Shown here piece by piece: positions 9,965 to 61,816 of a DNA stretch of 64,000 nucleotides. Location: the IMG/VR virus record IMGVR_UViG_3300044556_000077, positions 32,001 to 96,000 of that record; one strand, 5' to 3'. Both the position numbers and the translations under genes were made by a program. Below the pieces are notes generated by a model. It ran no database searches, had not been told where the DNA came from, and saw only the letters and a program-made list of their open reading frames with translations. The stretch's first letter is position 1, and every line of letters begins with the position of its first letter. Source of the stretch: a virus (lineage: Duplodnaviria; Caudoviricetes).

Positions 9965-11692
9965 ATGGCAAAAATTAAGAAGTTATTGACTTTTGACGAT
10001 TTAGTCAACTTCTGTGAAACAAGCCATTTGAAATCTTTCTCATTTAAGGATTCTGGTTATAGATTGGCATTGCAAGTTCCTTCTACTTTTGAAATTGATA
10101 ATTCTAGTAATCGTGATGGACTGTTAGACATCAAAGTAAAAGTAATGCATATTGGGAAAAATAGAAATCAATCTTACATTTCCGAAGATGCAGTGAAGAA
10201 AGCAATGTCATCTATCAAGAATCGTCCTGTATTGGGATATATTCATCAGTTAGATGATGGCAGTTATGATTTTTATGGTCATAACATTGAGATTGTTGAA
10301 AATGAAGACGGTGATAACGAGGTTGAATACCTTGAGTATCCTGTTGGAAATTTCACAGAAGATGAGCCAACTTTAGAGTATGATCCAGAGCATGATAAAA
10401 CCTATCTGGTTGCTCATGCTGTTATTTATGAGGAGTACTCTAAGGCAGCCGATATTATTAGAGAAAAACAAGGCACTAAGAATTCCTGTGAGATCATCAT
10501 TAATTCTTTTGCTTATAATGCGAAAGAAAGATGTGTTGAAATTCAGGACTTTTATTTTAGTGGATCTACATTGCTCGGATCAGATGATGCAGGAAACGAA
10601 ATCCTTGAAGGGATGGAAGGCTCAAGAGCAGACATTGTAGATTTTAGTGAACAGAATAACAGTATGTTTGCTCATAAACCAATTGATAATCCTGCATCTG
10701 AGAATGAAAGAAAGGAGGACGATAGAGTGTTAGAGGAACTTTTAAAAAAGTACGGCAAGACTGTAGAAGATCTTACTTTCGATTATTCTGAGTTATCTGA
10801 CGAAGAGCTTAAGAAAAAGTTTGAAGACGAATTCGACATTGATATTGATGATGATGACGATGACGTAGATGATGACTCCGATGACGATGATGAAGAAATC
10901 GAGGAGACTACAGAAACGACTATCGAAGAAGAAGACGATGACGATGATGATGACGATTCTGACGAAGATGAGGATGAGGATGAGGATGACGAAGACGATG
11001 ATCTTGACAATCCTGATGATGAGTTCTCCAAGAATGAAGAGCCAAAGGCAGAGCCAGATTCTTCCGAGAAGAAGTGTGGTGGCGGTAGAAAGAGAGATGT
11101 ATACGAAGTTCGCATGGACGAAATTTGGGGCATCATTTATCAGCTGACTGAGCAGTATCGTAATCCAGTTGATAATGCTGACGAGTATTGCATTCCAACT
11201 GAAGTCTATGAGACATATTTCATTATGTGCGACTACAACAGTGACAGACATTACAAGGTATCCTACTCTGTTGATGGTGACAATGTAACTATTGGTGAAA
11301 ACAGAGTTGAGGTATTCCCTGAGTGGCTGACTGCTGATCAGAAGACTGCACTCGATACACTTCAGAGTCGTTTTGAAGAAGTATCTACGGATCTTCAGAA
11401 ATATAAAGATGCTGAAGATAAGGCTAACAAGGAGGCTGTACTCGCTGACGAGGCTTATGAACAATTTGCTGATACAGAAGAGTTTAAGACGCTTCATGAG
11501 AAGATGGATGAGTTTACTCTTGATGAGCTTAAAGAAAAGGCAGAACTTGCTTTTGCTAAGTGCGTAAAAGAAGCAGGATCTTTTTCTGCTCATAAGAAAG
11601 AACCACAGAAGACGAGTACGAGATATGCTTTCTTGAATCCAAACAACACGGTTGAACATAAGAATCCTTATGGCAATCTGTTTGAGGAATAG
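9965..11692 (+). CDS. prohead protease-scaffold fusion
   Basis: H.GKNRN.S.I and G..NSCEI protease motifs; acidic and coiled-coil C-terminal half. Confidence 0.8.
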   Translation: MAKIKKLLTFDDLVNFCETSHLKSFSFKDSGYRLALQVPSTFEIDNSSNRDGLLDIKVKVMHIGKNRNQSYISEDAVKKAMSSIKNRPVLGYIHQLDDGSYDFYGHNIEIVENEDGDNEVEYLEYPVGNFTEDEPTLEYDPEHDKTYLVAHAVIYEEYSKAADIIREKQGTKNSCEIIINSFAYNAKERCVEIQDFYFSGSTLLGSDDAGNEILEGMEGSRADIVDFSEQNNSMFAHKPIDNPASENERKEDDRVLEELLKKYGKTVEDLTFDYSELSDEELKKKFEDEFDIDIDDDDDDVDDDSDDDDEEIEETTETTIEEEDDDDDDDDSDEDEDEDEDDEDDDLDNPDDEFSKNEEPKAEPDSSEKKCGGGRKRDVYEVRMDEIWGIIYQLTEQYRNPVDNADEYCIPTEVYETYFIMCDYNSDRHYKVSYSVDGDNVTIGENRVEVFPEWLTADQKTALDTLQSRFEEVSTDLQKYKDAEDKANKEAVLADEAYEQFADTEEFKTLHEKMDEFTLDELKEKAELAFAKCVKEAGSFSAHKKEPQKTSTRYAFLNPNNTVEHKNPYGNLFEE

Positions 11693-12240: not shown

Positions 12241-12707
12241 ATGCCTATTATGAGATTTAGTAATCCGAATACAAATGCCGTAATCGAAGACTATGGCTTT
12301 GAAGATACAAAGAGACTGATGTTTGATGCTGGTGTTAATTCCCTGAAGGGTGTTTCTCCGAAAAAAGCTGATGGAAAGATCAGAGAGATTTTCCAGAACA
12401 TTTTGGGTGTTAGTGAGAATTCTTCTGCTAAAGAGCTGAGAAATGCTATCAGAAGAAATGCTATTTCTGTATATGAAGTAATCGAAGAGGTTGTTCCGCA
12501 GCTGATGAGAGTTGGTTGGGCTGAGAATCCGTTCTTCGATGCTTTTGTTGAGTATAGAAATGGTGCACTGGGTGACACTAACGAGTTCTATGTAGAGGAT
12601 GACACAATCCTGTCTGTAGCAAAGCTGTCTGGTGGACACCATGATATTATTCGTCAGAGACTCGGTGAAGGAAGTTCGTTCTCTGTTAAGACTAACTGGT
12701 ACGGGGT
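12241..12707 (+). CDS. major capsid protein, exon 1
   Basis: Synteny; YEVIEE, F..FVEYRN..LGD..EF, G.HD..RQRL; ends mid-codon GT. Confidence 0.85.
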
Positions 12708-13101
12708 TAGATATTAGCTCCCAAGCATCGTGAGGTGCTTCGTAATATATAAATGCATTGAACTGCTGGAATTTCTTAAAGCTGATTACACTAAAACGTA
12801 AGTATGAAATAAGACTAGGCGTGAATGCCACGAAAGTAGAAAAAAGTAATCAGATGGTGCAAGGTTAAACCCTAAACACTGAATAATATACATAATATTA
12901 TTACAATAGAGAATCAGCATCCAAGTTCCGAATAGGAAAAGGATCAACGACTATCCCCTTGTGGGAGTAGAATTGCAAGCGATTGGTAATTCGAAGTGGT
13001 GCGCTCATTCAATGAGAATGAGAAAGATATAGTCTAATCTTTAGTGAAAGCTAAAGGGCTTAATGCCAACACAGAGTAGCGTCTGTAGTTAAATACAAAT
13101 G
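12708..13101 (+). ncRNA. group I intron in major capsid gene (394 nt, no ORF)
   Basis: P1 GGGGU/GCUCC; P4 tgctg/cagca; canonical P7 aacgacta/agatatagtc; terminal G; splicing gives WYG-GT|A-KIYTEFELFMAGRIDW. Confidence 0.92.
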
Positions 13102-16508: not shown

Positions 16509-17144
16509 ATGGAGTTCAAGGAGAAAACATGTGATGTAGTCCTGTCCCCTACTATGGATGCGTATGTAAAGAATTCTTCTTCATTACATCCTGAAGGGAA
16601 TTTTGACGAGATCACTAACATTAAATACAAAATTATGAAAATGCTTACCAGCGATGGTGATATTTTAAGAACACTGCACAACACTGAATTAGAGAAGTAT
16701 GTACCTACTTTGTATGATCCTAAATATATGAACGATCCAAAGTTAGATAAACAGCATAATGGTGATGTATATATTGATACTAATGTATTCAATTTTTTAC
16801 GTATTCCAGATATTGCGAGTGATGTAAAAACATATATTGGATTTGAAGTAGATGATGTTGAAATTCCTGATTTCAATACAAGCAGAATGACTAGAAACAT
16901 TACATTTAGGACAGTTTCTTATAAAGAAGAAAGCAAGACTAAATACGGAATCAGAAGACAGGATTTGCTTGCTTTACTGATCCGCAATAAATTTAACTGG
17001 ACTAATAAGTTTGGTCTTTCTGTTCATACAATTTGTAACGAAGGTAAACTTCTGGAGAGTGGCTATTACTACAGAGATATTATTCTGAACATGACAGCAA
17101 CGAATGATACTTATGATAGTATCAATAATAGTGGAGTTGTTTAA
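16509..17144 (+). CDS. tail terminator/completion protein (putative)
   Basis: R.DLLA.LI...FNW motif; upstream of tail tube gene. Confidence 0.55.
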   Translation: MEFKEKTCDVVLSPTMDAYVKNSSSLHPEGNFDEITNIKYKIMKMLTSDGDILRTLHNTELEKYVPTLYDPKYMNDPKLDKQHNGDVYIDTNVFNFLRIPDIASDVKTYIGFEVDDVEIPDFNTSRMTRNITFRTVSYKEESKTKYGIRRQDLLALLIRNKFNWTNKFGLSVHTICNEGKLLESGYYYRDIILNMTATNDTYDSINNSGVV

Positions 17145-17983
17145 TGTCAGATGTTTTAAATGAAATAAGTAATACAAGTAATGCTAGTCCTACTGCTCCA
17201 GAATCACAATCACTATTTGAATACGACATGCTTCAGATGTATATGAATACGTCTGATTATCATGTGACAGATAAAATTACTATTCATCAGCCTACTATTG
17301 GTGAAATCACACAGTATGGTGAAAAGGATTTTTTTAGAATGACAGCTGCGCTGTGCGCCAATCCAACTTCTTTAAGGCTTGAGCTTTGGGATCTTGGAAT
17401 TGATTGGAACAAGATTACTGAGTTTCAATTATTTACTATGGTTGCCCCACAATGGGAGCAGAAGCAGACTGAAATTCTATTTGGTGATCTTGATTTTCAA
17501 AAGTTTAAATTAACTACTAAAGAAAATAGTGATGATCTAGTAATGGTTTATTTGCCAGATATTTCTATTCAAATAGATGAATTGGTTTATTTACAGATTG
17601 TAGATTATTTAAGGTTTATGTTTAACATACATCCAAAGGTTGAAAGAGCGAAAGGTAAAACCACAAAAGAATTTATTATAGAGGGTGATCGCATGGATAA
17701 AGCTGCTCAAGAGCGGTTAGAGCGAATGCATCCTGAAAAAAGAGATAGTGGTGTTTTGTTTCGCCTGATTTCAAGTGCAGTTAACCATCCGGGCTTTAAG
17801 TATAAAAAAAATGAACTTATCGATGTTGGTATCGTTGAGTTCTTGGATAGTGTAAACAGACTCAGATTGTATGAACAATGCACTTCTGTTATGAAAGGTA
17901 TTTACAGCGGGTTTGTAGACACGAAAGGAATGAATATACAGAAAGAAACAGACTGGACACAGGATATGTATTCTAGTGATTAG
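17144..17983 (+). CDS. conserved tail-module protein
   Basis: I.QPTIGEI and GIYSG.VD motifs; TAATG coupling. Confidence 0.55.
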   Translation: MSDVLNEISNTSNASPTAPESQSLFEYDMLQMYMNTSDYHVTDKITIHQPTIGEITQYGEKDFFRMTAALCANPTSLRLELWDLGIDWNKITEFQLFTMVAPQWEQKQTEILFGDLDFQKFKLTTKENSDDLVMVYLPDISIQIDELVYLQIVDYLRFMFNIHPKVERAKGKTTKEFIIEGDRMDKAAQERLERMHPEKRDSGVLFRLISSAVNHPGFKYKKNELIDVGIVEFLDSVNRLRLYEQCTSVMKGIYSGFVDTKGMNIQKETDWTQDMYSSD

Positions 17984-19909: not shown

Positions 19910-20557
19910 TTGAAACTTAGAACAACTGAAGTGATTTATGAATGGAGTGATTGTTTGATACTAGATTTAGACAGACCAGTATTACACCTGACATCCCCTA
20001 TCCCAAGGACGGTAAATCATTATATGGGGATCAGAGTGGTTAAAAAAGGAAATAAAAGTATTCCAATGACGTATGTTACGCCAGAAGCTAAAAAGTACAA
20101 GTTGGAATTCATTCATTATATAAGAAAAGAAGTTAAGAAACAAGGTTGGGATAAGGTAAATAATAAGTATCGTCATCTATATATGGATGGCGTTTTTTAT
20201 ATGCCTAAAACCAATATGGACGCTGCTAACTGTGACAAAATCCTCTCAGATGCTATTACTGAATCAGGGGTAGTTTGGGATGATGATAGCGGTATTTTGT
20301 TCAGACCACAGAGAATTTATTATGATACGCAGAATCCTAGAATTGAATTAACAATTCATCCTGTTGAGTATTATGGGATCTTTGAGTCTAAGGAATCTGC
20401 TGAAAAGTTTGAACATAACTGTAGAAAATGCAAGAGATATATGCGTAATTGCAGTCTGCTTAGAAAAGCATTTGAATGCAGAATCTGTGAAGAAATCGAT
20501 ATGAATGGCGATGAGCCAGTATGTGAAAAGTTTAATCCAAAGGATAGTAAGGAGTAG
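19910..20557 (+). CDS. rusA: RusA-family Holliday junction resolvase (start may be slightly downstream)
   Basis: P.TVNHY, D.AN..K.L.DAI, V..DD, NPRIEL motifs; C-terminal Cys cluster. Confidence 0.85.
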   Translation: MKLRTTEVIYEWSDCLILDLDRPVLHLTSPIPRTVNHYMGIRVVKKGNKSIPMTYVTPEAKKYKLEFIHYIRKEVKKQGWDKVNNKYRHLYMDGVFYMPKTNMDAANCDKILSDAITESGVVWDDDSGILFRPQRIYYDTQNPRIELTIHPVEYYGIFESKESAEKFEHNCRKCKRYMRNCSLLRKAFECRICEEIDMNGDEPVCEKFNPKDSKE

Positions 20558-38553: not shown

Positions 38554-41500
38554 TGAATTTACTTTCAAAATATTCAGGAGAAGTTACTCCTTACACAGTT
38601 ATTCTGTGCAACAGAAACCATATTAACCTTGGTCTTATTCAGAATCCATCAGAGCTTACAGTAAAGATTAATATGAATGCAGCCGATGAGATTACATTCA
38701 CACTTTATGAAGAGAGCGAACCTTTGTGGGATAAGATTGAAGACTTTAAATATGTATTGATTCCAGAAATTGATTATCTGAATCCTAACGGAGAGTACTT
38801 TGAGATTGCTGTTTCCTATTCTGTAGAGGATGGTGGCAAGAAAACTATTACAGGTGTATCTGCAGGAGAATGTGAATTAGGACAGATTAATCTTTATGGT
38901 GTAGAAATTAATACTGAGACAGATATTGACCGGGCAGATTATAAGGTAGCTAAGTTCTGGGATGAGAAGACAGAGAATCAGCCTAATACGCTGCTTTACA
39001 GAGTATTAAAGGAAGTTCCGAATTGGTCAGTTGGTCATGTAGATGCTTCTATTGCACAGCTTCAGAGAACATTCTCTATTGATGGAATATCCATTTATGA
39101 CTTTCTGACTCAGCAAGCTGCACAAGAGTTTAACTGCTTATTTCAGTTTGATTCGTATGATCGTGTAATCAATGTTTACGATCTTTATACAGTATGTACT
39201 CATAAGAATAGTGATGGCACATCTTGTGGAGAACGTGGAGACTTCTATCAGGTATGTCCTAAGTGCGGAACTGATGATGAACTTCACTATTACGGTAAAG
39301 ATACTACAGTTTATGTTGACTCTGAAAATCTGTCAGACAATGCAGGATTAGAAATCGATAAAGACAGCGTTAAAAACTGTTTTCATCTGGTAGCTGGTGA
39401 CGATAATATGACAGCTGCGGTATTAAACTGCTCCCCTTCTAATTCTAGCTACATCTATTATTTCTCTGATGAGCAGAAGGAAGATATGTCTAAAGAGCTT
39501 AGAGATGCTTTAGATAAGTATGAGAGTGATTTGAAAGCTGTACAGCCTACTTATGCTGATATGATGGAAAAGTATTATGATGCAATCGATAAGGAAAGCT
39601 ATTATGAGAACACCATGATGCCTACCCTCACCCCTGATTTGCCTACTACGACAGATGAGTATGAGAAGAGTAAGTTATATGCTGATAAGCTGACAAATTA
39701 TAATCTTTCTCCTATTGCTCTTGACTACATTTCTCCTGATACATCTCAAGCTACTGTAGAAAACTCTATTGAAGAGTATGCTAAAGTCTATGTACCTACT
39801 GCATATTATGAAGTTGAAGTAGCCAGAATTGCTGATTGGAATCATGTTAAAAATGTTAGTCTGCCTACCTACATGGTAGATCCAACTTATTCATATGATG
39901 AAGCAAGTAATACAGGAACTTGGACTGGTGTACTTGTTGTTAAGAATTATAATGACGAAACCAAGCCAGCGTTCTCTCAGGTACTTACAATCAGTTTTAG
40001 TTCTGCTAATCAGGAGCAGTTTATCAGACAGAAGATCGAAAAGATGCTCACTGCATATGACTATTATCAGAGAGATGATTATAGAGCAAATAAAGATGAT
40101 CGTTATATGTTCAACGTTCTGAAGCTTACTGATATTAATAAGTATAAAGAATCAATCAAGCTGTATTGTATGACACTCCTGAAAGACTTCCGCACTTCTA
40201 TCGAAGGATGTCTTGATATGCTTTCCGAATTCAGTATTGGTGATGGATCTGATGAAACAGACCAGCAGCCAGAGTTCCAAAAGCTTTATAATACATATTA
40301 TCAGATGCGTGAAGCTACTGAAGCTGAAATGAATGAACGTCAGAAACAGATTGATGAGCAAAACGCACTGATTAATAAATACCAAGCTGAAAACAAAGAG
40401 TATATTGAAAAGTATGATCTGAAAAAATATCTTACTGGTGATCTGTATAACGAGTTCTGTGCTTTCAGAAGAGAGGACGAATATAACAATACAAACTATA
40501 TCTCCGACTCTTTGGATACGGCTAAAGAATTATTTAAGAGAGCTAATGAGTTCTATAAAGAAGCCACAAAAGAACTTAAAAAAGCATCCAACTATAAGTA
40601 CAACATTACAACTGACTTAGCTAATCTGCTTGCCATTAAAGAGTTTGAACCACTTGCTACAGGCTTCGATCTTGGTGATTGGATTAGGATCAGAGTAGAT
40701 AAAGATATCTTCAGATTGCGCTTTATCAGCTATACAGTTAACTTCTCACAGCTTGACAAGATTCAGGTTGAGTTCTCCGATGCTACTAAAGCTAGAATCG
40801 ATGATCCTTATTATTCGATTAAGAACGTGTTAGACCAAGCCAGAAGTATGGCTACATCCTACTCTGCTGTTACCAGACAGGTTAAAAATAACAGTGATAA
40901 AACTACTGTAATTGACAACTGGGTAGAGAATGGTTTCGATGCAACTAAAACTAAGATTGTAGACAATGCTACGAATCAGGGAATCACTATTGACCAGCAT
41001 GGTGTGCTTGCTAGGCGTTGGAGCGATATTAATAAGAAGTTTGATAATAAGCAGCTTAAGCTTATTAACAATGGTATCTATATTACAGACGATAATTGGA
41101 AGACTATTAAAACGGCTTTGGGTAATTACTATTATCAAGATCCCGTTACTGCAAAGCAGACAGAGACTTATGGTTTGATGGCAGATACGATTGTAGGTAA
41201 GTTTATTCTGGGAAACAAATTATCCGTACAAGCGTTAGGTAAAGATCCTATTACAGGAGATCAGAACTTCGTTACATTCAATGTAGATTCTGATGGAGTA
41301 CAGTTAAATAACAGCTCATTCTCACTTACAGCGGATAAAAAAAATGCTTTAGGACACAGAAATAAGATTGTGCTTGATCCTAAGTTTGGTCTGCTTATGG
41401 GGGATGACCGTATTCTGGATTACTCTAATGGTAAGTATACGATTAAATCTGATTATGTAAATGAAGATGGAACGCTGAAATATAACGTATCAAGTGGTCA

Positions 41501-43137: not shown

Positions 43138-43545
43138 TCAAACGATTGCTCTTTTTTTTACGCTTTTACGATTGAATGTTTTCATCATTCCCCAATAAGC
43201 CATTCCACCACAAAGATAAGCAATTACATCTTTCCAATCTCCGTAGCTGTCAGGTCTAAAGAATGGTGTTATATACTCCCAAAAGATTGCGCAAATGAAA
43301 ATAAATAACATGCATACCCTAAACTTTTCTATCCTCTTTTTGATGAGCAATGAGTACACTGCCAGAAAAAAGATGCCACACAGAAAATCATTCAAATGGA
43401 ATGCTACGAATCCACCCACCAGAGTTTTATAGTTAATAATCTGCCTTATATAGAACCGATTAAGCGAGTAAATAACAAGCACTGTAAGAGAGATCAATGT
43501 ATTAATTTTAATGTCTCTCGCAGTATATAATCCTTTATTTTTCAT
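43138..43545 (-). CDS. integral membrane protein (VanZ/DUF2809-like)
   Basis: Four TM helices; HLND, WEY..P, D..D..AY..G. Confidence 0.6.
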   Translation of the reverse strand: MKNKGLYTARDIKINTLISLTVLVIYSLNRFYIRQIINYKTLVGGFVAFHLNDFLCGIFFLAVYSLLIKKRIEKFRVCMLFIFICAIFWEYITPFFRPDSYGDWKDVIAYLCGGMAYWGMMKTFNRKSVKKRAIV

Positions 43546-43598
43546 TTGAATATCCTCTAAGAGTTGCAATGTAATAAATAAACATATATAATAATTAT

Positions 43599-43997: not shown

Positions 43998-45224
43998 TTA
44001 AATTGTTAAATAGTCTGGATAAGGCTTAAACTTTCTAACTCCTTTCTCGTACTTAAAAGCCTCTGCTATATGCACGTATGTGTTAGCTGTAACTTGTATA
44101 CCTGAGTGACCGAGTAAATATGAGATCGTTTTAATGTCTACTCCCTGTGCGAACAATGCAGTTGCGTATGTGTGTCTTAATATATGTATTCCATGCTTAT
44201 CTTTAGGCAGCTTGGCAGCTTGCATCAATTTATCACATGCTCTGCGCACGTTATATGTCCATAGGAGTGTGTTATTTTGACTTTTGAAAATCAGGTCGGT
44301 ATCAGAATTATCTTCTCTTAAATGCTTCTCTATGACGTTTGAGACATTATCATTTACAGGGATAATCCTGTAACTGCTTTTCGTCTTAGGCATCTCTTGT
44401 ATCTGCATATGTTGTACTCCGATCTTCTGCTTTCTCACATCTACCCGTGATACAGGTAGAGCATTTCTTCTGATATATAGCATCTGAGTTTGAGGGTTGT
44501 AATCTCTTTTCTCTAGTGCTATTCCTTCGCCTACACGCAAGCCTGTGTTGAGCAGTACATAAAGCAGATCCGCATATGTAGATCCATTTCTTTGACAGGC
44601 GTTGCAGAATTTCACAACTTCTTTATCAGTGAGCCAGTTAACTTCTTTCTGTGCTTCTGTAGGCAGATGGATATAATCTATTATGTTTGGTCTGTAGTAG
44701 AGTTTGTTTTTTATTAGGTAATACTGATAGAAACTCTTTAGTGCTGATTTCACTTTCTTCATCGAAGAATATGACAGTCCTTGTTTTCGCATTTCATTAA
44801 TCAGCTCATTGTCAATAATCTCTACTGTTAGCTCTGAGACAGCCAAATTTCCGATATGAGGTACGATTTGATTGTGTATGGTATGATAGAGCCTTTTAAA
44901 ACTTTCAGGCTTTAAATCGTGCTTTTTAATGGTTTCTAACCATTTGTACATCTCATCGGCTAAAGTTGCTTTCGTTGCCACAACAGCCTTACTCTCCGGG
45001 AAGTCAGATGGAGTTACTTTATTAGCTTCTATTACTTTGTCTTTGAATAAGTTTAATTTCTCTTCTACAGATGCTTTATCCTTACCAGAGAACTGTTTAC
45101 GTACTCTTCTACCGTTGCGAGTAATCATGATAGAAGCATGCCATTTACCATCGTTCCCCAGATAAATAGATCCTTGATGGTTGGTGTTTTTTTGATGTTT
45201 TTTTGCTTGTTGTTTAGTCTTCAT
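43998..45224 (-). CDS. int: tyrosine integrase
   Basis: N-terminal arm-binding domain (GSIY...GKW.A); TGLRVGE, K, HILRHT, LGH, Y catalytic residues. Confidence 0.95.
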   Translation of the reverse strand: MKTKQQAKKHQKNTNHQGSIYLGNDGKWHASIMITRNGRRVRKQFSGKDKASVEEKLNLFKDKVIEANKVTPSDFPESKAVVATKATLADEMYKWLETIKKHDLKPESFKRLYHTIHNQIVPHIGNLAVSELTVEIIDNELINEMRKQGLSYSSMKKVKSALKSFYQYYLIKNKLYYRPNIIDYIHLPTEAQKEVNWLTDKEVVKFCNACQRNGSTYADLLYVLLNTGLRVGEGIALEKRDYNPQTQMLYIRRNALPVSRVDVRKQKIGVQHMQIQEMPKTKSSYRIIPVNDNVSNVIEKHLREDNSDTDLIFKSQNNTLLWTYNVRRACDKLMQAAKLPKDKHGIHILRHTYATALFAQGVDIKTISYLLGHSGIQVTANTYVHIAEAFKYEKGVRKFKPYPDYLTI

Positions 45225-45539: not shown

Positions 45540-45612
<73 letters not shown>

Positions 45613-48966: not shown

Positions 48967-49563
48967 CTAATGAGGGTTTGTGTTTAACTTCATACCGTGG
49001 CAACGAATTTTGTTCTTTTTAGAATCGTCATTATAACCATATCTCATAGTATTAGCATCAGTTTCAAATTCATCTGGTGTAATTCGTTTAAATCCACCGA
49101 ACAAAGAACCACTTTTCCCATTAGACAAAATACAAGCCAAACCATTGATAAATGCTGTGTTGTTTTGTGCATTCTGTATTTCTACACTATTTACAAACAT
49201 CTGTGCAACTTTCAGCATGTCACGCCCTTCAGCAGTCTCGCATTCTTTTACTGCTTTATTAAAGTTATCAATATAGTCTTTTACTTTGTCTAAAGTCTTC
49301 TGAGCTTTATCCTCAACATTCTTATTGATTTCTTCTTTCTTAATAAGTTCCTGCGTTTTATCTTCAATTTCCTGTTTGATCTCATTAAGTCTTTTCTCTG
49401 CTTTATCAATTTCCTTTTCAGTATCAAACAGCTTTAACAGATCTGGATTTTTAGAACAAATCGCATATGTAACTTTTGCAGCTCTACTATTTGCCTGTGA
49501 ATGATTCAACCCATTGTTCATCAATGTTTCTTTTACCACTTCCCAGTTTTTATTCAGTTCCAT
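48967..49563 (-). CDS. coiled-coil hypothetical protein
   Basis: AGGAG RBS, 198 aa. Confidence 0.6.
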   Translation of the reverse strand: MELNKNWEVVKETLMNNGLNHSQANSRAAKVTYAICSKNPDLLKLFDTEKEIDKAEKRLNEIKQEIEDKTQELIKKEEINKNVEDKAQKTLDKVKDYIDNFNKAVKECETAEGRDMLKVAQMFVNSVEIQNAQNNTAFINGLACILSNGKSGSLFGGFKRITPDEFETDANTMRYGYNDDSKKNKIRCHGMKLNTNPH

Positions 49564-49595
49564 TTTTTACTCCTATCTATTTAACTTTATAACTC

Positions 49596-50114
49596 TTACT
49601 CCTCGTTTGGAAGCTCTGGTAATGGCATCCATGCTATTATTCTGCTTGTAGTAAATTTGCTATGCACTGTGGTTTCAAGCACAATCGGTCTTTTTTCGCC
49701 CACGCTGTCGCAAATTTCAAAAACAGGATAACCGCTATTTCCGTCCTTACTTATCATTCTGCCGTAGATAACTCGACCATAACAGGACAGTAGAACGTGC
49801 TGTTTTATTTCTGGCAGTCTCTCACTACATGGAATCCACCTTGGCTCTGGCTGTGCGTATGGCAACACAGATAATTTACTCACGGCAAAATCAATTCCGT
49901 CATTGTATCCGATGTCGTACTCGGTGCACCATCCCTCGTCAACCTTTGCACCGTCGAATGCATCAATCGCCGCCTGTCTGCTAATCAAATCATCCATCAT
50001 GTTCTCCTTTCCATGCTTCTGGTATTTGTCATGCAGCATCCAATCTGGTATTTCTGCATTACGTTTGTTTACTTCATCCATTCCTCTGTACCGATTAATA
50101 CTTAAATCAAACAT
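49596..50114 (-). CDS. DUF551-domain protein (internal start at 50000 likely)
   Basis: DLISRQAAID, WIPCSERLP, AWMPLPE. Confidence 0.75.
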   Translation of the reverse strand: MFDLSINRYRGMDEVNKRNAEIPDWMLHDKYQKHGKENMMDDLISRQAAIDAFDGAKVDEGWCTEYDIGYNDGIDFAVSKLSVLPYAQPEPRWIPCSERLPEIKQHVLLSCYGRVIYGRMISKDGNSGYPVFEICDSVGEKRPIVLETTVHSKFTTSRIIAWMPLPELPNEE

Positions 50115-50116
50115 TT

Positions 50117-50431
50117 TTATTTCTCCTTTGGCATATTAGGCAATGGCATCCAATACTTCACTGTATCTGGAAATCCTTGTTCATCAAGCCACTCTTCCGA
50201 TATAAGAACCCAGTGACAAAACTCTACAAATAATCCTGTAAAAACAAGATATTTACCCGATGTCTTAGGAAGTTTATCTTCTACACTTATCCACCGTCCA
50301 AATGGCAGGGCAGTTGGCATATTATCAATCAAATTATATAAATTACCAAACGTAATGAAGTAGGCTCTAAGATTTGCATATTCTTTATTGGCTAATTTAC
50401 TAATAAGTGCATCCACATCAATCAATCTCAT
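50117..50431 (-). CDS. DUF551-domain protein
   Basis: MRLID.D, WISVEDKLP, YWMPLP. Confidence 0.8.
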   Translation of the reverse strand: MRLIDVDALISKLANKEYANLRAYFITFGNLYNLIDNMPTALPFGRWISVEDKLPKTSGKYLVFTGLFVEFCHWVLISEEWLDEQGFPDTVKYWMPLPNMPKEK

Positions 50432-53400
50432 TACTTTCCTCTTTCTTAATTGCTTCTTTAATATACTTTACTGCAGCATGGATTGCACCGTTATATCCCT
50501 GCTGATAATCATCAAGTCCTTCTTCTGGACTCCATGCTAATTCACTAATTGCTTTTTTAATATTTGTTAATGTTTCTATCGTATGGCTACCCATCATTCT
50601 GCCCTCTAATACTTTGCGTCTTCCCAAAATGAATCTACAAACATCTTTATAATCACCATTAACTAATTGATCTTTAATTGTCTCAGAAACAATAGGAGGG
50701 ATTTCTAAGAAATCTTCTATCTGCTCTGCAAAGAATTTTGCATCGCTTCTTTTCATTCCGTCTTCTAATTTTCTAAACATCATTATCTTTCCTAATATTA
50801 CTCTTTATTAAACATAAGTTCTAATAGAGTATTATTCCTCTGTATCCTTTAACAGACTCTCAATATTATCAGCCAGATAATGTGTTACTCTCTTATATCC
50901 ATTGGAGTTTGTATTTTCGTCAAACCCTCTGAATGATGTCCTGACTGGATAAACATCAGTAATTTTATCGTCCTCAATCTCTACGGCAATAGCCCATCCG
51001 AACAAATGAAGGATACTATTAATAAACCACAATAATCCTGTTGCTCTAAATTCTTCCCATGTCTTTTTCTTAATCATTTTTATTCATCATCCTTTAAAAT
51101 ATCTTTTAAATATTGTACTCTTTTAATGCGTTCAATTTCTTTCTTCATGTCCTTTTTAATTCCACTGACTGCTTGACCTACACCTACCTCAGAGCTAAGA
51201 CCAAGTGACCTGTGATTATCAAACCAGTCGTCCACAATATTCATAGCAGAATATATGCCCTCAATATAAATCTCAAACTTTTCATTACTATTCATCATAA
51301 TCACCTACGCTTCGCTGAATTGTCTCTTCTATAAATGCTTTGATTTTTTCCACGTCATCTCTTGAAAGGGTATTAGAACAATACACTATATCGGTCACAA
51401 GACCAATTGCGACTGTTATCATCGTAGTCATTTAATCCACCTCCATATTAAGCTTGTCATTTCATACAGTTCACTATTCTTTAGGTAATTTCCAATTCGC
51501 TTTCATGCCATTAGCTAGCCACAAGGTGAAATACTTCTGAGGAATTTTTTGCTTATGTCTTTCTTCCAACATTTAATCCTATTACTAACGTATCTTATCT
51601 TTATTGATTGTTTCTTCTGCTCTAATCTTTCTTGTCTTGTCATCACTTTTCACTAATCGTAGCCTTTTTTTTCTTTTGCAATTATAGCGCATCCAACCCA
51701 GTAGAGACACCATCCAAAATTTTTAACATGTTCAGACATATCTGTGCATATAAGATAAGTTTTAATATGCTCCATAAATTCCTCGTTTGTATAGATTTTT
51801 ACTGTACTCATAATTTTACTGTTCTTCTTTGTGCTTTACCCATTTACTACAAAAATCATCTGAGCAAATATCAGCAGTCTTAGTTAATGAGCAGAAATAT
51901 GAATTCATTGTTCTTCCGCCTGCAAGTGCTATATGAGTATAGTATTTACAAGTAGAACATTCGTGCACCGTTTTGTAGCCATTTTTGTTCATGTTTATAA
52001 TGGCATCTACATAACCCTTAGTGTATTCGTCTTTTGGAATCTTATCTGCTTTGCTTTCTTCCATCTCTTTCATGCTAAGACAAATTACATCATATATCTT
52101 CCATTTATCATCTTTTAATACTTTATAATTATCCCTAGCTACAGAGAAAATCTTATAAAGTTCATCCCACATTTCTTTATAATCAGCCATGTTATTTATT
52201 AGCCTTCTTTTGCTTTATGCTTCATAAACTCAATTAAATCATTATAGCAGCATTCGCACATATCTAGTTTATGCCTATAATCATATTTATATTCCTTGAA
52301 TTTATACTTAAAGCGATCCTTCGTTATATCTCTTCCGCAGATATCACACGTAACAACTTTTCTTTTCATTCCAATTAAACTCCCGTCATTTCAATAAACT
52401 CATCATAATACTCATATATTTCTGCCTTGCCATCTTCGAAGCCTTTGTCATAGGATTCATTATAGCTGTTGCTCTTATTTGCTTTGTATCCATCGTCAAA
52501 AGCTGCAGAGTAATAAGTTTAAGATAGTCATTCATAAATATACTTTTGCGTTCTTCACTTCTATCCTGATTAGGATATATCTCTCCCAAAGTATCCCAGA
52601 TCCATACTACAAATGCGTTCTTGCAGTTTTCAATACCATGATCTACTCCATCACAAAACCCTTCATCACGCATAGGGCATCTGACACACTTTATATAGTT
52701 AGATAAAATTTCAGCTAAAGTGCCAACTTCATTATTAGTCATCTATATTCTCCTCATCAATAAGTTTACTACGATATCTGATCCTGTTATTAATATCATC
52801 CAGTCTGTCATAGATCAAAGTCTTGTAGGTAGTAAGTGCTTCAATCTGGTCACATACAATATTAAGCGGGGCATATCGATCATACATGTGTACATCCTCA
52901 TCATAAGCTAGGCTTGAGTAATATAAAGCGCATTTGTCATATTCCTTATTAAGCTCAATCACTCTTGCAGCTACATCTTTATACTCACCTTCAAACTTTG
53001 CGTACTCATATTTCAACTTGCTGATAAACTCATCATTCTTACTCAATGGTATCTCCTCTCTTACATTAAAATATTTAAAAGCTCATTATATTCTGCTTCA
53101 TCACTGTCGGTATTCTTCTCATATTTTTCCTGAAATCTCATAACCTTCGACATTAAAGCTACGATAATTGAATTTAAAAATAAAACATCTTCATCACTTA
53201 TTTCTTTAGTTTCTTTTATACGTGCAAGAATAAGTTGTGCTTTAAGTCCATCTACTAACATCATATCTTCTTTATTATTCATCGGTTTCATCCTCTTTGT
53301 AATATCCACATCCTAACATATCACTTGTATAAGATTCGAGATAACAACCTAATCTTTTACAATAAAGACGAGTAAGTTCTTTACTGTATGCACATTTATT

Positions 53401-54598
53401 ACATGTATGTGCCGGGTTAATCTTTTTAGATGTCTCAATCTTTCTCTTAAATGAATTAATGTCTATCGCCAAGGCAAACATGCAGATCATAAAGACAACC
53501 TGAATGATTACGAGCAATATCAGTAATGATGCTACGCTACGCATTGTTTTCTTCTTCCTTTCTTTGCCATTTGTCGCAACACATTGCCTCATATACTATT
53601 AACCCACTAAGACATTTGCATTTTCCATCAGCCCACATATTTTCCAAGGCCACGTTACCTTCACCATACTGAAATGAATCATAGTGCTTACAATTTTTAC
53701 AATACTTCTGAGCAATTACATATTCATTCATTTTTATTCTCCTTTAACATATCTACGATCCTTCGTATCTTGATACCAGCCTGAACAGCGCATATCAGGA
53801 GTAACCAATAATCCATACTTGTAGCACTTTAATCTGTTGTTGCAATATTCAATTTTGCATGAACCACTACACCATTCGCATGTCATACTACTAAACCTGT
53901 TAAAAGCATCATTATATCCATCGTTATAAGCTTTGCGTACTGTCTCAGCAGCCATCTCAACATCTTTGTCTTTCCCTCGATCGATTAGTCTCTGTATAGC
54001 AACATCAACATTATGTTCTCCTTTATCGGATAGATTAAAATTTCTCAATGCATCAAGAAACACTTTTGCTTCTGCAAGCTCTAATTCAGTCGGTGTCATT
54101 ATTCGTCATCACTCTCCTTTATCTTCTTTTAATTCATCTTTTTCTGCTTCAAAGCACTTAATCATATTCTTCAATGTATAAATTCTTGTATAAGTATCAC
54201 TTAATTCTTTCCTAACTGTTTCTTCTTTGTTTAGTTCAATTTCAAGCAATGTCTCAACATACTTAATCACATCTTCCCTGTTCTTTTGCTTAAAGATTTC
54301 TATAGCTTCTTTACTTGTTATCATTGTCTTTGTCCTCAACATCTATTACAATTGGATCACATACCTTATTCTGCAGCTCACGAATCTTATTCCGAATAAA
54401 AGTTCTTTCGTCACGAAATTCTTCTTCAAGGATCTTTATCCTAGAGCCTGTGTGAATATCCATAAAGATACTCACCAACAGGACTATTGTAAGTGTTATG
54501 TTCGCCACCAAACTAAGCATTTTCATCTTCATCCCATCCTTCTTGATCGTATTCCCATTCTTCTTCTTTGCACTTCTCATATCCGCTTTCATATCCAT
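50418..54598 (-). CDS. cluster of ~12 small hypothetical phage genes (50418-50783, 50832-51077, 51080-51304, 51816-52190, 52386-52742, 52735-53046, 53061-53309, 53275-53592, 53537-53731, 53734-54099, 54109-54342, 54311-54598)
   Basis: Co-oriented, abutting ORFs; several CxxC...C...C domains and GY.DG motifs. Confidence 0.55.
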
Positions 54599-55013
54599 CT
54601 GAGAATCCCATATCGTACATACTATTCAGTTTAGAATACATATAATCCGTAAGCACTTTATAGCAATCATTTACAGCCTTTGGATTTCCATGATCTCTTT
54701 CGTATTCTTCATCATACTCATCTCTATAAAACATATCTTCAACCACTTCCCTTGCCATCATATGATTTGTTTCTGCATCCTCTAAAACATCTGTATGCCA
54801 ATCCAACTTCGGTATAGTAACACCAGATTTGTTTACTTCAATCTCTCCGTCAGTATCACATTTATAAGCAGCTGTCTCATAATCTTTCAGATCATACATG
54901 CATCTGGCGTCTACCACAAACCCTTCTACAGAACGATCATCTTTCATCCATTTCGGAACGCTCTCATTAATCTGATCGATAGCTTTCTTTACTGCTTCTT
55001 TGTCTTTGCTCAT
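54513..55013 (-). CDS. hypothetical protein, paralog of 55088-55387
   Basis: P.WM..DR.VEGFVVD......DYET.A..C shared. Confidence 0.65.
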   Translation of the reverse strand: MSKDKEAVKKAIDQINESVPKWMKDDRSVEGFVVDARCMYDLKDYETAAYKCDTDGEIEVNKSGVTIPKLDWHTDVLEDAETNHMMAREVVEDMFYRDEYDEEYERDHGNPKAVNDCYKVLTDYMYSKLNSMYDMGFSDGYESGYEKCKEEEWEYDQEGWDEDENA

Positions 55014-56461: not shown

Positions 56462-56638
56462 CTACTTATTCTCTTCTGTAACCTGATTAGCATTCTGCTG
56501 TGCAGCTGCTTCTCTCTCAATAATATTCTTAAGAGTAGTAATTGAAGCTGCCATATTAATCGTATCCATTCCCTTTACTTCAATTCCAAGCAGTGCGTTA
56601 TATACCTGTGCGATCTCATTCAGTGTCTTCTGATCCAT
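56462..56638 (-). CDS. 58-aa hypothetical protein (below ORF-track cutoff)
   Basis: MDQKTLNEIAQVYNALLGIEVKG...; TAATG coupling, GAGG RBS. Confidence 0.6.
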   Translation of the reverse strand: MDQKTLNEIAQVYNALLGIEVKGMDTINMAASITTLKNIIEREAAAQQNANQVTEENK

Positions 56639-57234
56639 TATTCATCCTCACTTTCATTACTTCCATAAAGTTTTTTCTCGGCTTCTCTAAACAGGATTTC
56701 CTGTCTCCAAAGTTCCATACCAGTCTCAAGCTTATATCTGGTTACAAAGTTAGGGCACTTAATATTTTCCATGAAATTCTCATTGAATTCCTTATACATT
56801 CCTTTAGTCCAAGTTCCGTTAGGCTTTGGGAAATCCATTTTGTTAGCATATTTCTTAAGATATGTAATATACGTTCTCCAACTCATGTACGGAGCATTTG
56901 CTCTCCAGAAAATAAACAACTTATCAAGCATAGCCAGAGTATTTCTGGAAGTGTCATTAACAAATACGCTTCTCTCAAGAGAAAGATCGTCAGCGTTCTT
57001 TCTGTACTTATCGAATGATTTACTAAGTCTATCATAATCAGATACCAGAACACCAAGACCAAGCTGCTCCTCTGACATTGTATTAGTCAGCCAAGTAAAA
57101 GTAGGGTTCTCTGTATCTTTATGGTGGAAATACAGATATCCCATAAACATCTTTCTGATCTCACTACGTTCCTTATCTCTAGCTTTTCTTACCTCGGATT
57201 TTTCATCATCTGACAAAGGCTTGTAAACTACTTC
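56638..57234 (-). CDS. IStron host gene, exon 2 (hypothetical; spliced protein ~236 aa)
   Basis: Frame open from the IStron 3' end: EVVYKPLSDDEKSEVRK... Confidence 0.8.
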   Translation of the reverse strand, partial: EVVYKPLSDDEKSEVRKARDKERSEIRKMFMGYLYFHHKDTENPTFTWLTNTMSEEQLGLGVLVSDYDRLSKSFDKYRKNADDLSLERSVFVNDTSRNTLAMLDKLFIFWRANAPYMSWRTYITYLKKYANKMDFPKPNGTWTKGMYKEFNENFMENIKCPNFVTRYKLETGMELWRQEILFREAEKKLYGSNESEDE

Positions 57235-57345
57235 CTGAACCTCCCACGACTAAAGTCGCGGGGTTCTTGGTCAACACCTCTAACGAGGTGAGATTACCCA
57301 AGCTATCCCCGTAGTTCCTACGGTTTTACATATGTTATTTAAGCT
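57235..57345 (-). ncRNA. TnpB omega/reRNA scaffold and IS right end (5' limit uncertain)
   Basis: CCGTAGGAACTACGG, CTTGG..CACCTCGTTAGAGGTG..CCAAG and CCCCGCGACTTTAGTCGTGGGAG hairpins ending GTTCAG. Confidence 0.75.
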
Positions 57346-58436
57346 GATATTCTCATCCCTTCATTTAAAATGTTCTTTGCTGCATTAATATCCCTATCTA
57401 ATTTTGCTTTACAATTAGGACATACCCATTCTCTAACATTAAGATCTTTAGTAATAGGGAACTTTTTACCACAACAGCTACAAGTTTGACTACTTGCATA
57501 AAATTTATCTATTTTTACAACTTTCTTTCCATACCATTCGGCTTTGTATATAAGTTCTCTTGTAAATTCAGACCATGATACATCAGCAATATTACGTGCA
57601 AGTTTATGATTTTTAATCATATTTTTTACTTGCAAGTCTTCAATACAAATAACATCATAATCTTGAATTAATTTAGTAGATAACTTTTGTAAATAGTCTC
57701 TTCTCTGATTAGAAATATGCTCCTGAATCCTGGCAACCTTAATTCTTACCTTTACCCAGTTTGAACTTCCTTTTGTTTTTCGAGAAAGCTCTCTCTGAAG
57801 TTTGGCAAGTTTCTTAAGAGATTTATCCAAATATTTAGGATTATGATATTTCATACCATCTGAAGTAATTGCAAAGTCTTTAATACCAAGATCAATTCCT
57901 ACTTCTTTTGAAGTTTTTGGCAATGTAGGAATCTCTATTCCCGTACAGCATAAAGACACATAGTATTTACCACTTGGAACTTGAGACACTGTGGCATTCA
58001 AAATTCTTCCTTGAGGAATCATTTTATCTGTGATACGTAATTTCCCAAGTTTGGGAAGTTGTATGTATTTGCCAAGAAATTTGATATTGTTATTTGTATA
58101 ACTCGTTCTATAAGAATTATTATGAGTTTTTTTAGATTTAAATTTTGGATATTCACTTCTTTTATCAAAGAAATTCTTATAGGCAGTATCTAAATCTCTA
58201 AGTGCATTCTGCAATGCGAATTTGTCAGGTTCTTTAAGCCATAATAATTCTTTTTTTATTTTAGTCAGGTCTTTAGAACATGCACTATAGTTCATTGTTT
58301 GCTTAGACTCTTTATACAATTCTTTTCTCATGGCAAGATAATAATTAAAAACGAATCTTGCACATCCAAACGTCTTTGCAATTAATATTTTTTGTTCAGT
58401 TGTTGGGTATATACGATATTTATATGCTTTTTCCAT
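57339..58436 (-). CDS. tnpB: TnpB RNA-guided endonuclease
   Basis: AYKYRIYP HTH; RuvC GIDLG, IEDL, DRDINAA; Zn finger CSCCG/CPNC; all intact. Confidence 0.95.
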   Translation of the reverse strand: MEKAYKYRIYPTTEQKILIAKTFGCARFVFNYYLAMRKELYKESKQTMNYSACSKDLTKIKKELLWLKEPDKFALQNALRDLDTAYKNFFDKRSEYPKFKSKKTHNNSYRTSYTNNNIKFLGKYIQLPKLGKLRITDKMIPQGRILNATVSQVPSGKYYVSLCCTGIEIPTLPKTSKEVGIDLGIKDFAITSDGMKYHNPKYLDKSLKKLAKLQRELSRKTKGSSNWVKVRIKVARIQEHISNQRRDYLQKLSTKLIQDYDVICIEDLQVKNMIKNHKLARNIADVSWSEFTRELIYKAEWYGKKVVKIDKFYASSQTCSCCGKKFPITKDLNVREWVCPNCKAKLDRDINAAKNILNEGMRISA

Positions 58437-58437
58437 A

Positions 58438-58839
58438 TTACTTTCTCTTTTGGCTTTTTATATATTCTATTATTTGCCGTTCGGTATTTTCTGATACGGT
58501 AGCAACAAAGTAGGATGGATTCCATAAATGTCCTTCCCAAAGAACATTCTTCCATCTCTCACGATATCTTTTCATTAAATATCGTGCCGAAACACCTTTT
58601 AACGCCTTTATCATATTTGGTATGTAATGTTGTGGTGAGCAATTAATCAGTAAATGTATATAATCAGCCTCACCATTCATTTCAAGTATTTCAAACCCAT
58701 TTTTTTGAGCAATATTATTTAATACTTCATGTAAATATTTCTCAACATCTTCTGTTAAAACTTTTTTTCGGTATTTGACACACCATACAATATGATATTG
58801 GATTGAATATACATATCCTCTTCCATGTGTTACTTTCAT
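58438..58839 (-). CDS. tnpA: IS200/IS605 Y1 HUH transposase TnpA
   Basis: YHIVWCVKYR, DYIHLL (HUH reads YIH), LW..SYF, YI..Q; AAGGAGG RBS before ATG 58839. Confidence 0.93.
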   Translation of the reverse strand: MKVTHGRGYVYSIQYHIVWCVKYRKKVLTEDVEKYLHEVLNNIAQKNGFEILEMNGEADYIHLLINCSPQHYIPNMIKALKGVSARYLMKRYRERWKNVLWEGHLWNPSYFVATVSENTERQIIEYIKSQKRK

Positions 58840-58857
58840 GCCATCCTCCTTACGCAT

Positions 58858-58886
58858 AGAATAACATATGTAACACGGAAAGTCAA
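58858..58886 (-). promoter_or_regulatory. internal tnpA/tnpB promoter
   Basis: TTGACT-17-TATTCT with TGn extended -10. Confidence 0.6.
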
Positions 58887-58959
58887 GTAAATATCAGTAT
58901 AGTTTAGCTATATTTTAATAACATATGTAAAGCCATAGGACTATTAGTCATCTATGGAG

Positions 58960-59412
58960 GTTGTAGTTCACATGGTGTCGCTAATTCCATGCATCCTTAT
59001 CTGCCTTATTGTTTAGCAGCAGGTATCTCATGCTTTCACATGAGCACAGACTATATCTTATCCTTGCCATATTTCTATGGTTTAGGCGATACCACTTCGA
59101 ATCGCTTGATTCTACTCCCCTCAAGAGGGATAGTCGTTGAACCTTCTCCTTTTCGGAGCTTGGCTGCTGGTTCTCGATTTTTAAGCACTTAGGTTTTAAC
59201 CTTATACCATCTAATAATTTTTTTCTGCTTTCGCAACATTCGTACCTAGCCATATTTCATGCTTATACTGTAGTATTATTAGCTTTACGAATTTTCAGCA
59301 GTTCAGTATCTTTGTTGGACGTTTAAACGTCACTACATACAAGTTTCCCTATATGCTAACTATTTATGTGTCTTACTCATGACTAAAGTCACGAGTGTGC
59401 GACACATATTTA
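58960..59412 (-). ncRNA. group I ribozyme core of the IStron
   Basis: GAACTGCTG, AACCAGCAGCCAAG, TTCAACGACTA, AAGATATAGTCTG; P1 TTGAT/GTTAG. Confidence 0.9.
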
Positions 59413-59526
59413 ATCAAAGTTAACCTTAACTTTTTCAGTCTTGAAAGGTTTGTTTGTTACAGCATCATTTTTCTTCATAGCTTTAGCATGTTTACCTTTC
59501 TTCGAATTCTTCTTTTTATTAGCCAT
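59413..59526 (-). CDS. IStron host gene, exon 1 (38 codons)
   Basis: AAGGAGG RBS; MANKKKNSKKGKHAKAMKKNDAVTNKPFKTEKVKVNFD ending in TTTGAT. Confidence 0.82.
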
Positions 59527-61171: not shown

Positions 61172-61816
61172 TTAGGCTTCTTTCCTCTTATTATACGGAT
61201 TAATGATCCATTCCTTAAAGCATGGAAGTGTTTCAACCCAGTCACAGAAACACTGCCACTCAGGGAGAACATGATGTCTTCTCTGAAAGTAAATTGTTTT
61301 AAGCTGCTGATAATTAGTTACCATTCCTGCTGTCAGCTTCAAACCTGTAGGACAGGAATACAGGACTCTCAGATACTGCTCATGCAGAGCCTCATAGTAA
61401 ATATCATGGTCAGCTTCATCGATCTGGTCTTCAGCTTCTTTCATCTGATTATAGCCCTTGGCAAGCTCTTTCATAATCTCAATCATTCTCTTGTCTGTAT
61501 ATTCAATAAACTGCTTACTAAGATCAAACTTGCAGATTCTATGAATGCTAGACTGAGAACTTATAATATCAAAGAAGTGATATCTCTCTGCTTCTGTCCA
61601 AGCCTTAACTGTGAAAGTCAGATCAAAATGAACTGTAATTCCTTTAAGGAAGTTGTCATGAGCTGTGCCAGTCGGAACTCCTGCAAGTTTTGCTGTCATC
61701 TTCGTAGGCTCTCCTGTGCACTTCTGGGCATTTGTAGCCATTGGGTACTTAGAGGAACGAATAGCAAAATCCATTCCGCTGACTTCTACATTTGAGATAA
61801 TGTCGTTGTAGTTCAT
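61172..61816 (-). CDS. divergent ThyX/Thy1-like protein
   Basis: H..FL, E..RY....SS.S..HR, TNY..L.....QR..H...EW; next to dUTPase and kinase. Confidence 0.65.
   Translation of the reverse strand: MNYNDIISNVEVSGMDFAIRSSKYPMATNAQKCTGEPTKMTAKLAGVPTGTAHDNFLKGITVHFDLTFTVKAWTEAERYHFFDIISSQSSIHRICKFDLSKQFIEYTDKRMIEIMKELAKGYNQMKEAEDQIDEADHDIYYEALHEQYLRVLYSCPTGLKLTAGMVTNYQQLKTIYFQRRHHVLPEWQCFCDWVETLPCFKEWIINPYNKRKEA

Follow-up and report, generated by a model that had tools for sequence, protein, structure and literature searches.

The window analyzed here is a 64,000-nt stretch of DNA from a virus of the Caudoviricetes (positions 32,001 to 96,000 of the IMG/VR record IMGVR_UViG_3300044556_000077), in which a phage gene is interrupted by a 2,178-bp element carrying a group I ribozyme core, the transposase gene tnpA and the nuclease gene tnpB. 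The element occupies positions 57235..59412 on the minus strand, the strand to which the coordinates of its parts given below refer, and lies in the sense orientation relative to the interrupted gene. Exon 1 of this gene (38 codons, 59413..59526) ends in TTTGAT, whereas exon 2 (198 codons and a stop codon) extends over 56638..57234. The element starts directly after TTTGAT, with an in-frame TAA as its first three bases, and ends in TCAG. The last five bases of exon 1, TTGAT (59413-59417), constitute at the same time the target site, the putative transposon-adjacent motif (TAM) and one strand of the 5' splice-site helix. A reading made from the sequence alone (hereafter the sequence-only reading) had assigned this locus to a CdISt1-type IStron inserted in sense within a phage gene. 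The parts on which it relied (the TTTGAT end of exon 1, the group I core, the terminal hairpins, the tnpA and tnpB frames and the RuvC residues) are all present where it had placed them and, together with the junction described below, support the assignment.

When 57235-59412 was deleted in silico, a 711-nt frame was obtained that has the same length as the uninterrupted gene of the sister scaffold L004 and differs from it by 33 mismatches (95.4% identity). This scaffold was reached by a protein search with exon 2 against an index of 5.8 billion proteins, which returned a single cluster whose representative, 236 amino acids long (38 + 198), reads ...NFD/EVVY... across a junction identical to the predicted one. 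The DNA of this representative is L004, an 88-kb metagenome scaffold whose sequence is 94-99.5% identical and collinear to that of the window, where exon 1 ends at the same junction and TTGAT is immediately followed by the start of exon 2. The in-frame ...FD/EVVY... anticipated for exact removal of the element is thus matched by a naturally uninterrupted gene. The boundary is fixed to the base, as a one-base shift is impossible and no other deletion frame matches the sister sequence, and precise removal regenerates the host gene with the junction seen in natural empty alleles. An identical copy of the whole element was found on a further contig, L135.

Insertion 3' of TTGAT (or of ATTAT or TTTAT) combined with a TCAG end characterises group A IStrons, and the same rule of target and end applies to 13 relatives and to every site of the family described below for which the left flank is known. 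Both ends of the element fold as hairpins. Exactly two occurrences of the 10-nt hairpin core were counted in the 64 kb, one per element end, where 0.12 would be expected by chance. Judged by these sequence features, the window element is a group A IStron (IS200/IS605, CdISt1-type) and, as such, of a known kind.

Ribozyme, nuclease and guide scaffold of the element

The group I ribozyme core at the 5' end of the element (59027..59360) matches the Rfam family RF00028 (Intron_gpI) with 49.9 bits (E 3.9e-11), and the ribozyme part is 76-78% identical at the DNA level to C. difficile IStron copies. Nine IStrons, which start directly after TTGAT, align well across the ribozyme, and the group I core motifs are invariant in alignment A3. 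In the same alignment, an internal guide sequence (59356..59360) pairs with the exon TTGAT to form the predicted P1 helix, with a U.G pair at the splice site. This helix is supported by a relative with a TTTAT insertion site, L019, whose internal guide sequence is altered in step with its exon. Closer to the left end, a subterminal hairpin with an 8-bp stem and a TTTA loop (59376..59395), presumed to be the TnpA recognition element, is surrounded by a covarying outer helix.

The window also contains a second group I intron, which lacks an open reading frame and interrupts a putative major capsid gene (12699-13056, plus strand; RF00028, 44.5 bits, E 1.4e-9). Over ~228 nt its identity to the IStron ribozyme is 72%, but it does not follow TTGAT and is devoid of IStron ends.

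The tnpB gene (57339..58436) encodes a protein of 365 amino acids with matches to PF01385, PF07282 and PF12323, for which the closest solved natural structure is that of ISDra2 TnpB (E 9e-102). Residues D182, E266 and D349 align to D191, E278 and D361 of ISDra2 TnpB, so that the RuvC triad is complete, and the zinc finger is intact with both CxxC pairs present.

Downstream of tnpB, the predicted omega-RNA scaffold (57235..57323) comprises three stem-loops and spans both the right-end hairpin (57243-57262), which covaries, and the 3' splice site. Its fold was derived from alignment A1, which runs from the tnpB stop codon to the right end of 22 related elements, IStrons as well as plain IS605 elements, from viral contigs, Faecalimonas, Tyzzerella, Phascolarctobacterium, C. 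difficile and other sources. The RNAalifold consensus contains 26 pairs, 19 of them with compensatory changes. In addition, the loop of the first stem (GGAAC) and the 3' GUUC are complementary and invariant, making them a candidate pseudoknot that fits the one described for omega-RNA (PMC10690162). A resemblance of the scaffold to Enterococcus sRNA 70 was discarded, the Rfam match being not significant (E 0.18). As a separate observation on this alignment, the last column of A1 distinguishes ribozyme-bearing elements, which end in ...TTCAG, from intron-less IS605 relatives with the same scaffold, which end in ...TTCAA. The terminal G is the base required by a group I intron, and a single base sets a transposon end apart from an end that doubles as 3' splice site.

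Following the rule established for IS605 omega-RNAs (PMC10690162), the predicted 16-nt guide, and hence the predicted target, corresponds to the start of exon 2 (57219..57234), directly flanking the structured scaffold. Both this guide and the TTGAT TAM agree with what the sequence-only reading had put forward, and the empty alleles L004, L137 and L138 contain these 16 nt unchanged. The sole near match to the target within the window is the right junction of the element itself; self-cutting is not expected there, because this junction is preceded by TTCAG and not by TTGAT.

The exact 31-nt right end is common to more than 120 metagenome contigs and six viral contigs. Among 85 scorable loci of this kind, 59 different downstream guides were counted. 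Nearly all carriers are more distant elements (66-73% identity), three of which, with both ends available, measure 1,774-1,806 bp, and the 31-nt right end is far better conserved than the element bodies. A metagenome scan with these 31 nt added only one further copy of the 2,178-bp family to which the window element belongs.

Sister copies, target alleles and phage setting

Tracing the TnpA cluster of the window element to contigs yielded ~20 loci, including eight full-length copies (that of the window among them), each exactly 2,178 bp long and mostly ~99% identical (range 96-99%). Pairwise differences amount to 14-31 of the 2,178 nt, except for the copy L155 at site G, for which they reach 77-86. 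Both tnpA and tnpB are open in 8/8 full-length copies, and tnpA changes among the sister copies are 13 synonymous versus 4 nonsynonymous.

The family occupies nine different sites, and TTGAT immediately precedes the element at each of those with an available left flank. At all sites with both flanks available, the copy is oriented in sense and its deletion re-creates an open frame. At five of the eight sites other than that of the window, the joined flanks align through the junction to the window genome (90-98.5% identity); at site D, for which only the right-hand flank is available, this flank matches the window genome at 91%. The window genome itself holds one full IStron copy and carries TTGAT followed by a 20/20 target for four sister copies. 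These empty sites, all on the plus strand, are site B (10683..10703, perfect target of the L151, L142 and L143 copy; gene 9965-11692, phrog_3313), site H (17400..17420, target of the L156 copy; gene 17132-17983), site E (19955..19975, target of the L150 copy; RusA-like resolvase gene) and site I (38757..38777, target of the L157, L158 and L195 copies; minor tail protein gene). At a fifth empty site, G (61402..61422, minus strand; gene 61172-61816), the target of the L154 and L155 copies is preserved (16/16) and the TAM reads TCGAT in the window genome through a synonymous change. The 14.6-kb contig L195 carries a family copy at site I within DNA 98% identical to the window genome, while L137, a separate contig from the same sample, has an empty site A, the site that is occupied in the window.

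No copy above 74% TnpB identity was found among 185,579 species-representative bacterial genomes, and none above 69% in IMG/VR apart from near-identical records. The idea that the phage could carry the element into host chromosomes, raised in the sequence-only reading, is therefore left without support. Taken together, these data indicate that the 2,178-bp IStron family has evidently been mobile, in recent times, within one phage lineage. A bias for insertion with GAT in frame, seen in 10/11 relatives, was dropped, as the ratio is 5 versus 3 within the family.

Three further observations concern individual copies. In the 2,927-nt Logan contig L146 (SRR27911147; positions 2230-2290), the right end of the family is joined directly to its left end, the order being a flank ending in TTGAT, element bases 70-2178, bases 1-76 and a homologue of the site C gene. 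This permuted arrangement could represent a circular transposition intermediate that was reinserted at an internal pseudo-site, or an assembly artefact. On L153 (positions 1-60 and 2209-2350), a family copy lies inside a gene whose product bears a tyrosine-recombinase-like C-terminal motif, at a site with no counterpart in the window genome. The downstream flank of the sister copy L145 starts one base past the stop codon of the open reading frame 43138-43569.

The search for empty alleles in related phages, as had been suggested on the basis of the sequence, was successful at site A. L004, L137 and L138 combine the TTGAT TAM with a 16/16 guide match. L139 retains TTGAT with guide mismatches at positions 3 and 15, and L136 retains it with mismatches at positions 3, 8 and 15, whereas in L140 and L141 the TAM reads TTAAT and guide positions 3 and 15 are mismatched. 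Predicted susceptible and, probably, resistant alleles of site A thus coexist among sister phages. Compared with window positions 57150-57234 and 59413-59450, L141 and L136 carry a patch of a more divergent allele type in a gene otherwise 94-96% identical overall to that of the window. This patch spans ~-37 to +50 around the insertion site, including the TAM and guide mismatches, and suggests recombination across the presumptive homing site.

The transposase gene tnpA (58438..58857) precedes tnpB, as in the IS200/IS605 family, and encodes an intact frame of 139 amino acids belonging to the Y1/HUH transposases, HUH standing for histidine-hydrophobic-histidine (PF01797, 4.5e-40). The closest solved natural structure is that of ISDra2 TnpA (E 8e-41), to whose catalytic Y132 the Y132 of the window protein aligns, and Q136 is likewise kept. 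The HUH motif itself, however, reads Y66-I-H68 owing to an H66Y exchange (codon 66, TAT, 58660-58662). The sequence-only claim of a complete TnpA and TnpB pair accordingly holds for both frames and for an intact TnpB, but not for the HUH motif of TnpA. H66Y is private to the window copy within its 90% TnpA cluster, in which all eight other members have H-I-H, and histidine occupies the first position in 17/19 relatives among the fetched loci. Across the 120 best TnpA relatives, 107 carry histidine (H-I-H or H-V-H) and 10 tyrosine, with no other residue present. The tyrosine forms are interspersed among the histidine forms, implying at least seven independent H-to-Y changes among these 120 closest cluster representatives.

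In comparison to the seven full-length sister copies, the window copy shows 11 private changes. Three are located in tnpA, and all of them alter an amino acid (E52K, H66Y, G108E); the remaining eight are in tnpB, where five are synonymous, so that the ribozyme part (555 nt) and the right end (104 nt) are free of private changes. The insertion-bearing allele of site A is recorded on four contigs, one of which (L135) was fetched; it stems from a separate Joint Genome Institute assembly, is identical to the window genome over 8.6 kb and represents the same strain. H66Y is hence not a single-contig error, because the separate assembly carries the identical sequence. With H66Y and two additional private amino-acid changes, the TnpA of the window copy is probably impaired.

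The interrupted gene comprises 236 codons when joined and is present in 8/8 members of its cluster, with both exons open. Its protein has no match in Pfam, PHROGs or the ESM Atlas, and a search of 1.8 billion representatives retrieved nothing beyond the peptide of exon 1 and a fragment of 95 aa. Exon 2 likewise has no match in phage records (tblastn) or IMG/VR, the index of 5.8 billion proteins alone having led to the sister phages, and the AlphaFold model of the host protein was unusable (mean predicted local distance difference test score of 47). The surrounding genes encode a DNA polymerase III alpha-like enzyme, a RecD2-like helicase, a dNMP kinase and a dUTPase. The source record is a 132-kb linear viral contig with an estimated completeness of 72%. 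It encodes a 408-aa tyrosine integrase (43998-45224, minus strand) located ~300 nt from a tRNA gene (45540-45612, minus strand), as well as another tyrosine recombinase beyond the window (G000:C1:112267-112734). Since the integrase adjoins a tRNA gene and SPbeta-type protein families occur on sister contigs, it is plausible that the phage is temperate and SPbeta-like and infects gut Firmicutes, in line with the temperate lifestyle assumed in the sequence-only reading. L004, although collinear elsewhere, lacks three segments of the window (49009-52053, 52229-52530 and 54333-54975) or has other DNA in their place, which adds to the insertion/deletion differences between the sister phages.

Proposed cycle and alternative explanations

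As a whole, the findings are best explained by a sense-oriented group A IStron residing in a phage gene, the transcript of which would either be spliced or give rise to a guide RNA, with spread of the family by TnpA and homing by TnpB, a reading to which we assign a probability of roughly 85%. The steps of this model are drawn from the CdISt1 and CboIStron literature (PMC4227781, PMC10690162, PMC13521648, PMC13565253). According to it, the host transcript would self-splice at TTGAU/ and ...CAG/, thereby restoring the 236-codon message, or would alternatively be processed into an omega-RNA that has as its guide the 16 nt with which exon 2 begins (57219-57234). TnpB together with this omega-RNA would cut TTGAT plus the matching target on IStron-free genome copies, which would be generated by excision or delivered by a co-infecting sister phage. 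With the IStron-bearing copy as template, repair would then install the element, resulting in retention and in homing of the window IStron between phages. Spread of the family to other TTGAT sites would proceed by TnpA-dependent peel-and-paste of single-stranded DNA. The window copy would need TnpA in trans for this step and would itself behave as a pure homing intron, mobilisable by sister copies.

Several points weigh against this reading. The RF00028 score of the ribozyme is 0.1 bit below the gathering score of 50, and the match is accordingly absent from the whole-window Rfam run at the gathering threshold. The P1 helix of the window element comprises only 5 bp, three of which are wobble pairs, and only one IStron copy is present per contig. 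Target-site variation among the sister alleles of site A shows no excess over the rest of the gene, so that the sequences bear no mark of selection by the nuclease, and none is claimed. H66Y renders autonomous transposition of the window copy doubtful; at the same time, the recurrence of the H-to-Y exchange may reflect a tolerated or even favoured variant instead of simple decay. Finally, we infer splicing, omega-RNA processing and cleavage by the window IStron from its sequence, and co-infection of IStron-bearing and IStron-free phages is presumed.

A bolder extension of the model, which we regard as tentative and to which we give clearly less than even odds, holds that the family is spreading at present in SPbeta-like gut phages. 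Under this proposal, the guide of each copy would match a perfect empty site in other phages of the lineage, and co-infection would lead to reciprocal RNA-guided cutting and copying, that is, to a multi-locus gene drive between viruses. TTAAT at site A and the synonymous TCGAT at site G would represent immune alleles, and the H-to-Y exchange would be a selected switch from 'jump' to 'stay and home'.

Among the alternatives, a dead relic would be an IStron that sits in a dispensable gene, effectively a pseudogene, and hitch-hikes with it, neither splicing nor cutting. The altered catalytic motif of TnpA, the Rfam score slightly under the cut-off and a host gene devoid of a recognisable family or known function would be compatible with such a fate. 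However, both exons retain an open, matching frame, and the gene is kept throughout its cluster. The ribozyme part and the right end are free of private changes, five of the eight private tnpB changes are synonymous, the RuvC residues and the zinc finger are intact, and the family has moved recently, all of which makes a relic unlikely.

Slightly less probable still, in our estimation, is an inter-phage weapon, in which TnpB would have been selected to destroy or out-compete co-infecting insertion-free sister genomes for the benefit of the carrier phage. Intron-encoded protein endonucleases are known to mediate interference between co-infecting phages, which counts in favor of this explanation. 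The perfect TAM and target found in sister phages for the window copy, and in the window genome for four sister copies, would suit it as well, as would the existence of alleles with a changed TAM (TTAAT at site A, TCGAT at site G). Sequence alone, on the other hand, cannot separate a weapon from homing, and the variation at the target site does not rise above that of the gene. An assembly artefact, with bacterial IStron DNA misjoined into a phage contig, is very improbable: although the record is a metagenome-derived contig and IStron repeats break assemblies, leaving many copies at contig ends, the same insertion occurs on four contigs (the fetched one being identical over 8.6 kb), it follows TTGAT to the base with exons in frame, and sister contigs hold the family inside collinear phage DNA.

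The value of the locus lies in the combination of a full-length, recently mobile family with occupied and empty alleles across a phage population. Within near-identical phages, such alleles are available at nine loci, with perfect, mismatched and TAM-variant targets side by side, and one copy combines a changed transposase motif with an unaltered nuclease, guide scaffold and ribozyme. The lineage is therefore suited for testing whether TnpB makes the inheritance of an intron between viruses super-Mendelian, how splicing and guide production are balanced during phage infection, and whether loss of TnpA activity stabilises the element.

Relation to known systems

CdISt1 and the IStrons of C. difficile belong to group A (Hasselmayer 2004; Tourasse 2014, PMC4227781; PMC10690162). 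The window element shares with CdISt1 and the C. difficile IStrons (CdiIStrons) the order and architecture of its parts, the TTGAT target, the TCAG end and both hairpin cores. It further resembles CdiIStrons in the location of the omega-RNA in the 3' region of tnpB, and its TnpB is 64% identical at the protein level. In contrast to CdiIStrons, which reside on a bacterial chromosome, the window element is located in a phage genome, and its scaffold lacks the 15 additional nt found in the middle stem-loop of the C. difficile scaffold. Moreover, the copies of C. difficile strain 630 are without a full-length tnpA (PMC10690162), whereas both genes are open in all eight full-length copies of the window family.

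ISDra2 of Deinococcus radiodurans (PDB 8BF8, 8EXA, 8H1J; 2XM3) has the same TTGAT site and TAM, the same RuvC triad and a guide taken from the right flank. Unlike the window element, it is devoid of a ribozyme, and its TnpA has the motif H-V-H where the window TnpA has Y-I-H.

IStrons borne by phages or plasmids are known from C. botulinum, namely CbISt3 and CbISt4 (phages c-st and D-1873) and CboIStron. These belong, however, to the IS607-type group B, with a serine recombinase as TnpA, a target ending in GG (TGGG) and a CGG end, and group B is of independent origin (PMC4227781). The sequence-only remark that IStrons are mostly described from bacterial chromosomes consequently needs to be qualified, since CbISt3 and CbISt4 are published phage-borne examples (PMC4227781). 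For CboIStron, homing by TnpB and omega-RNA and the conflict of splicing with guide RNA production were shown experimentally (PMC10690162), and the homing logic of IStrons is established or proposed (PMC10690162, PMC13565253). Group A IStrons with their TTGAT target and TCAG end (PMC4227781), TnpB homing, the splicing conflict and phage-borne group B IStrons are thus already published.

Related copies are present in the unannotated GenBank record CP067352 of a Clostridioides phage and in the IMG/VR contigs L005, L009, L019 and L027, the latter four being without an intact tnpA. In the literature searched, no description was found of group A IStrons in phages, or of IStron transposition and homing between phages. 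To date, IStrons and TnpB homing have been studied by reconstructing bacterial or plasmid copies in E. coli, and homing between co-infecting phages appears in that literature only as a proposal.

The closest parallel for the proposed cycle is provided by phage group I introns with protein homing endonucleases, which likewise spread to intron-less alleles during co-infection through a double-strand break and its repair. In contrast to these introns, the nuclease of the IStron would be RNA-guided and re-target itself to every new insertion site, and the element could, in addition, transpose to unrelated TTGAT sites.

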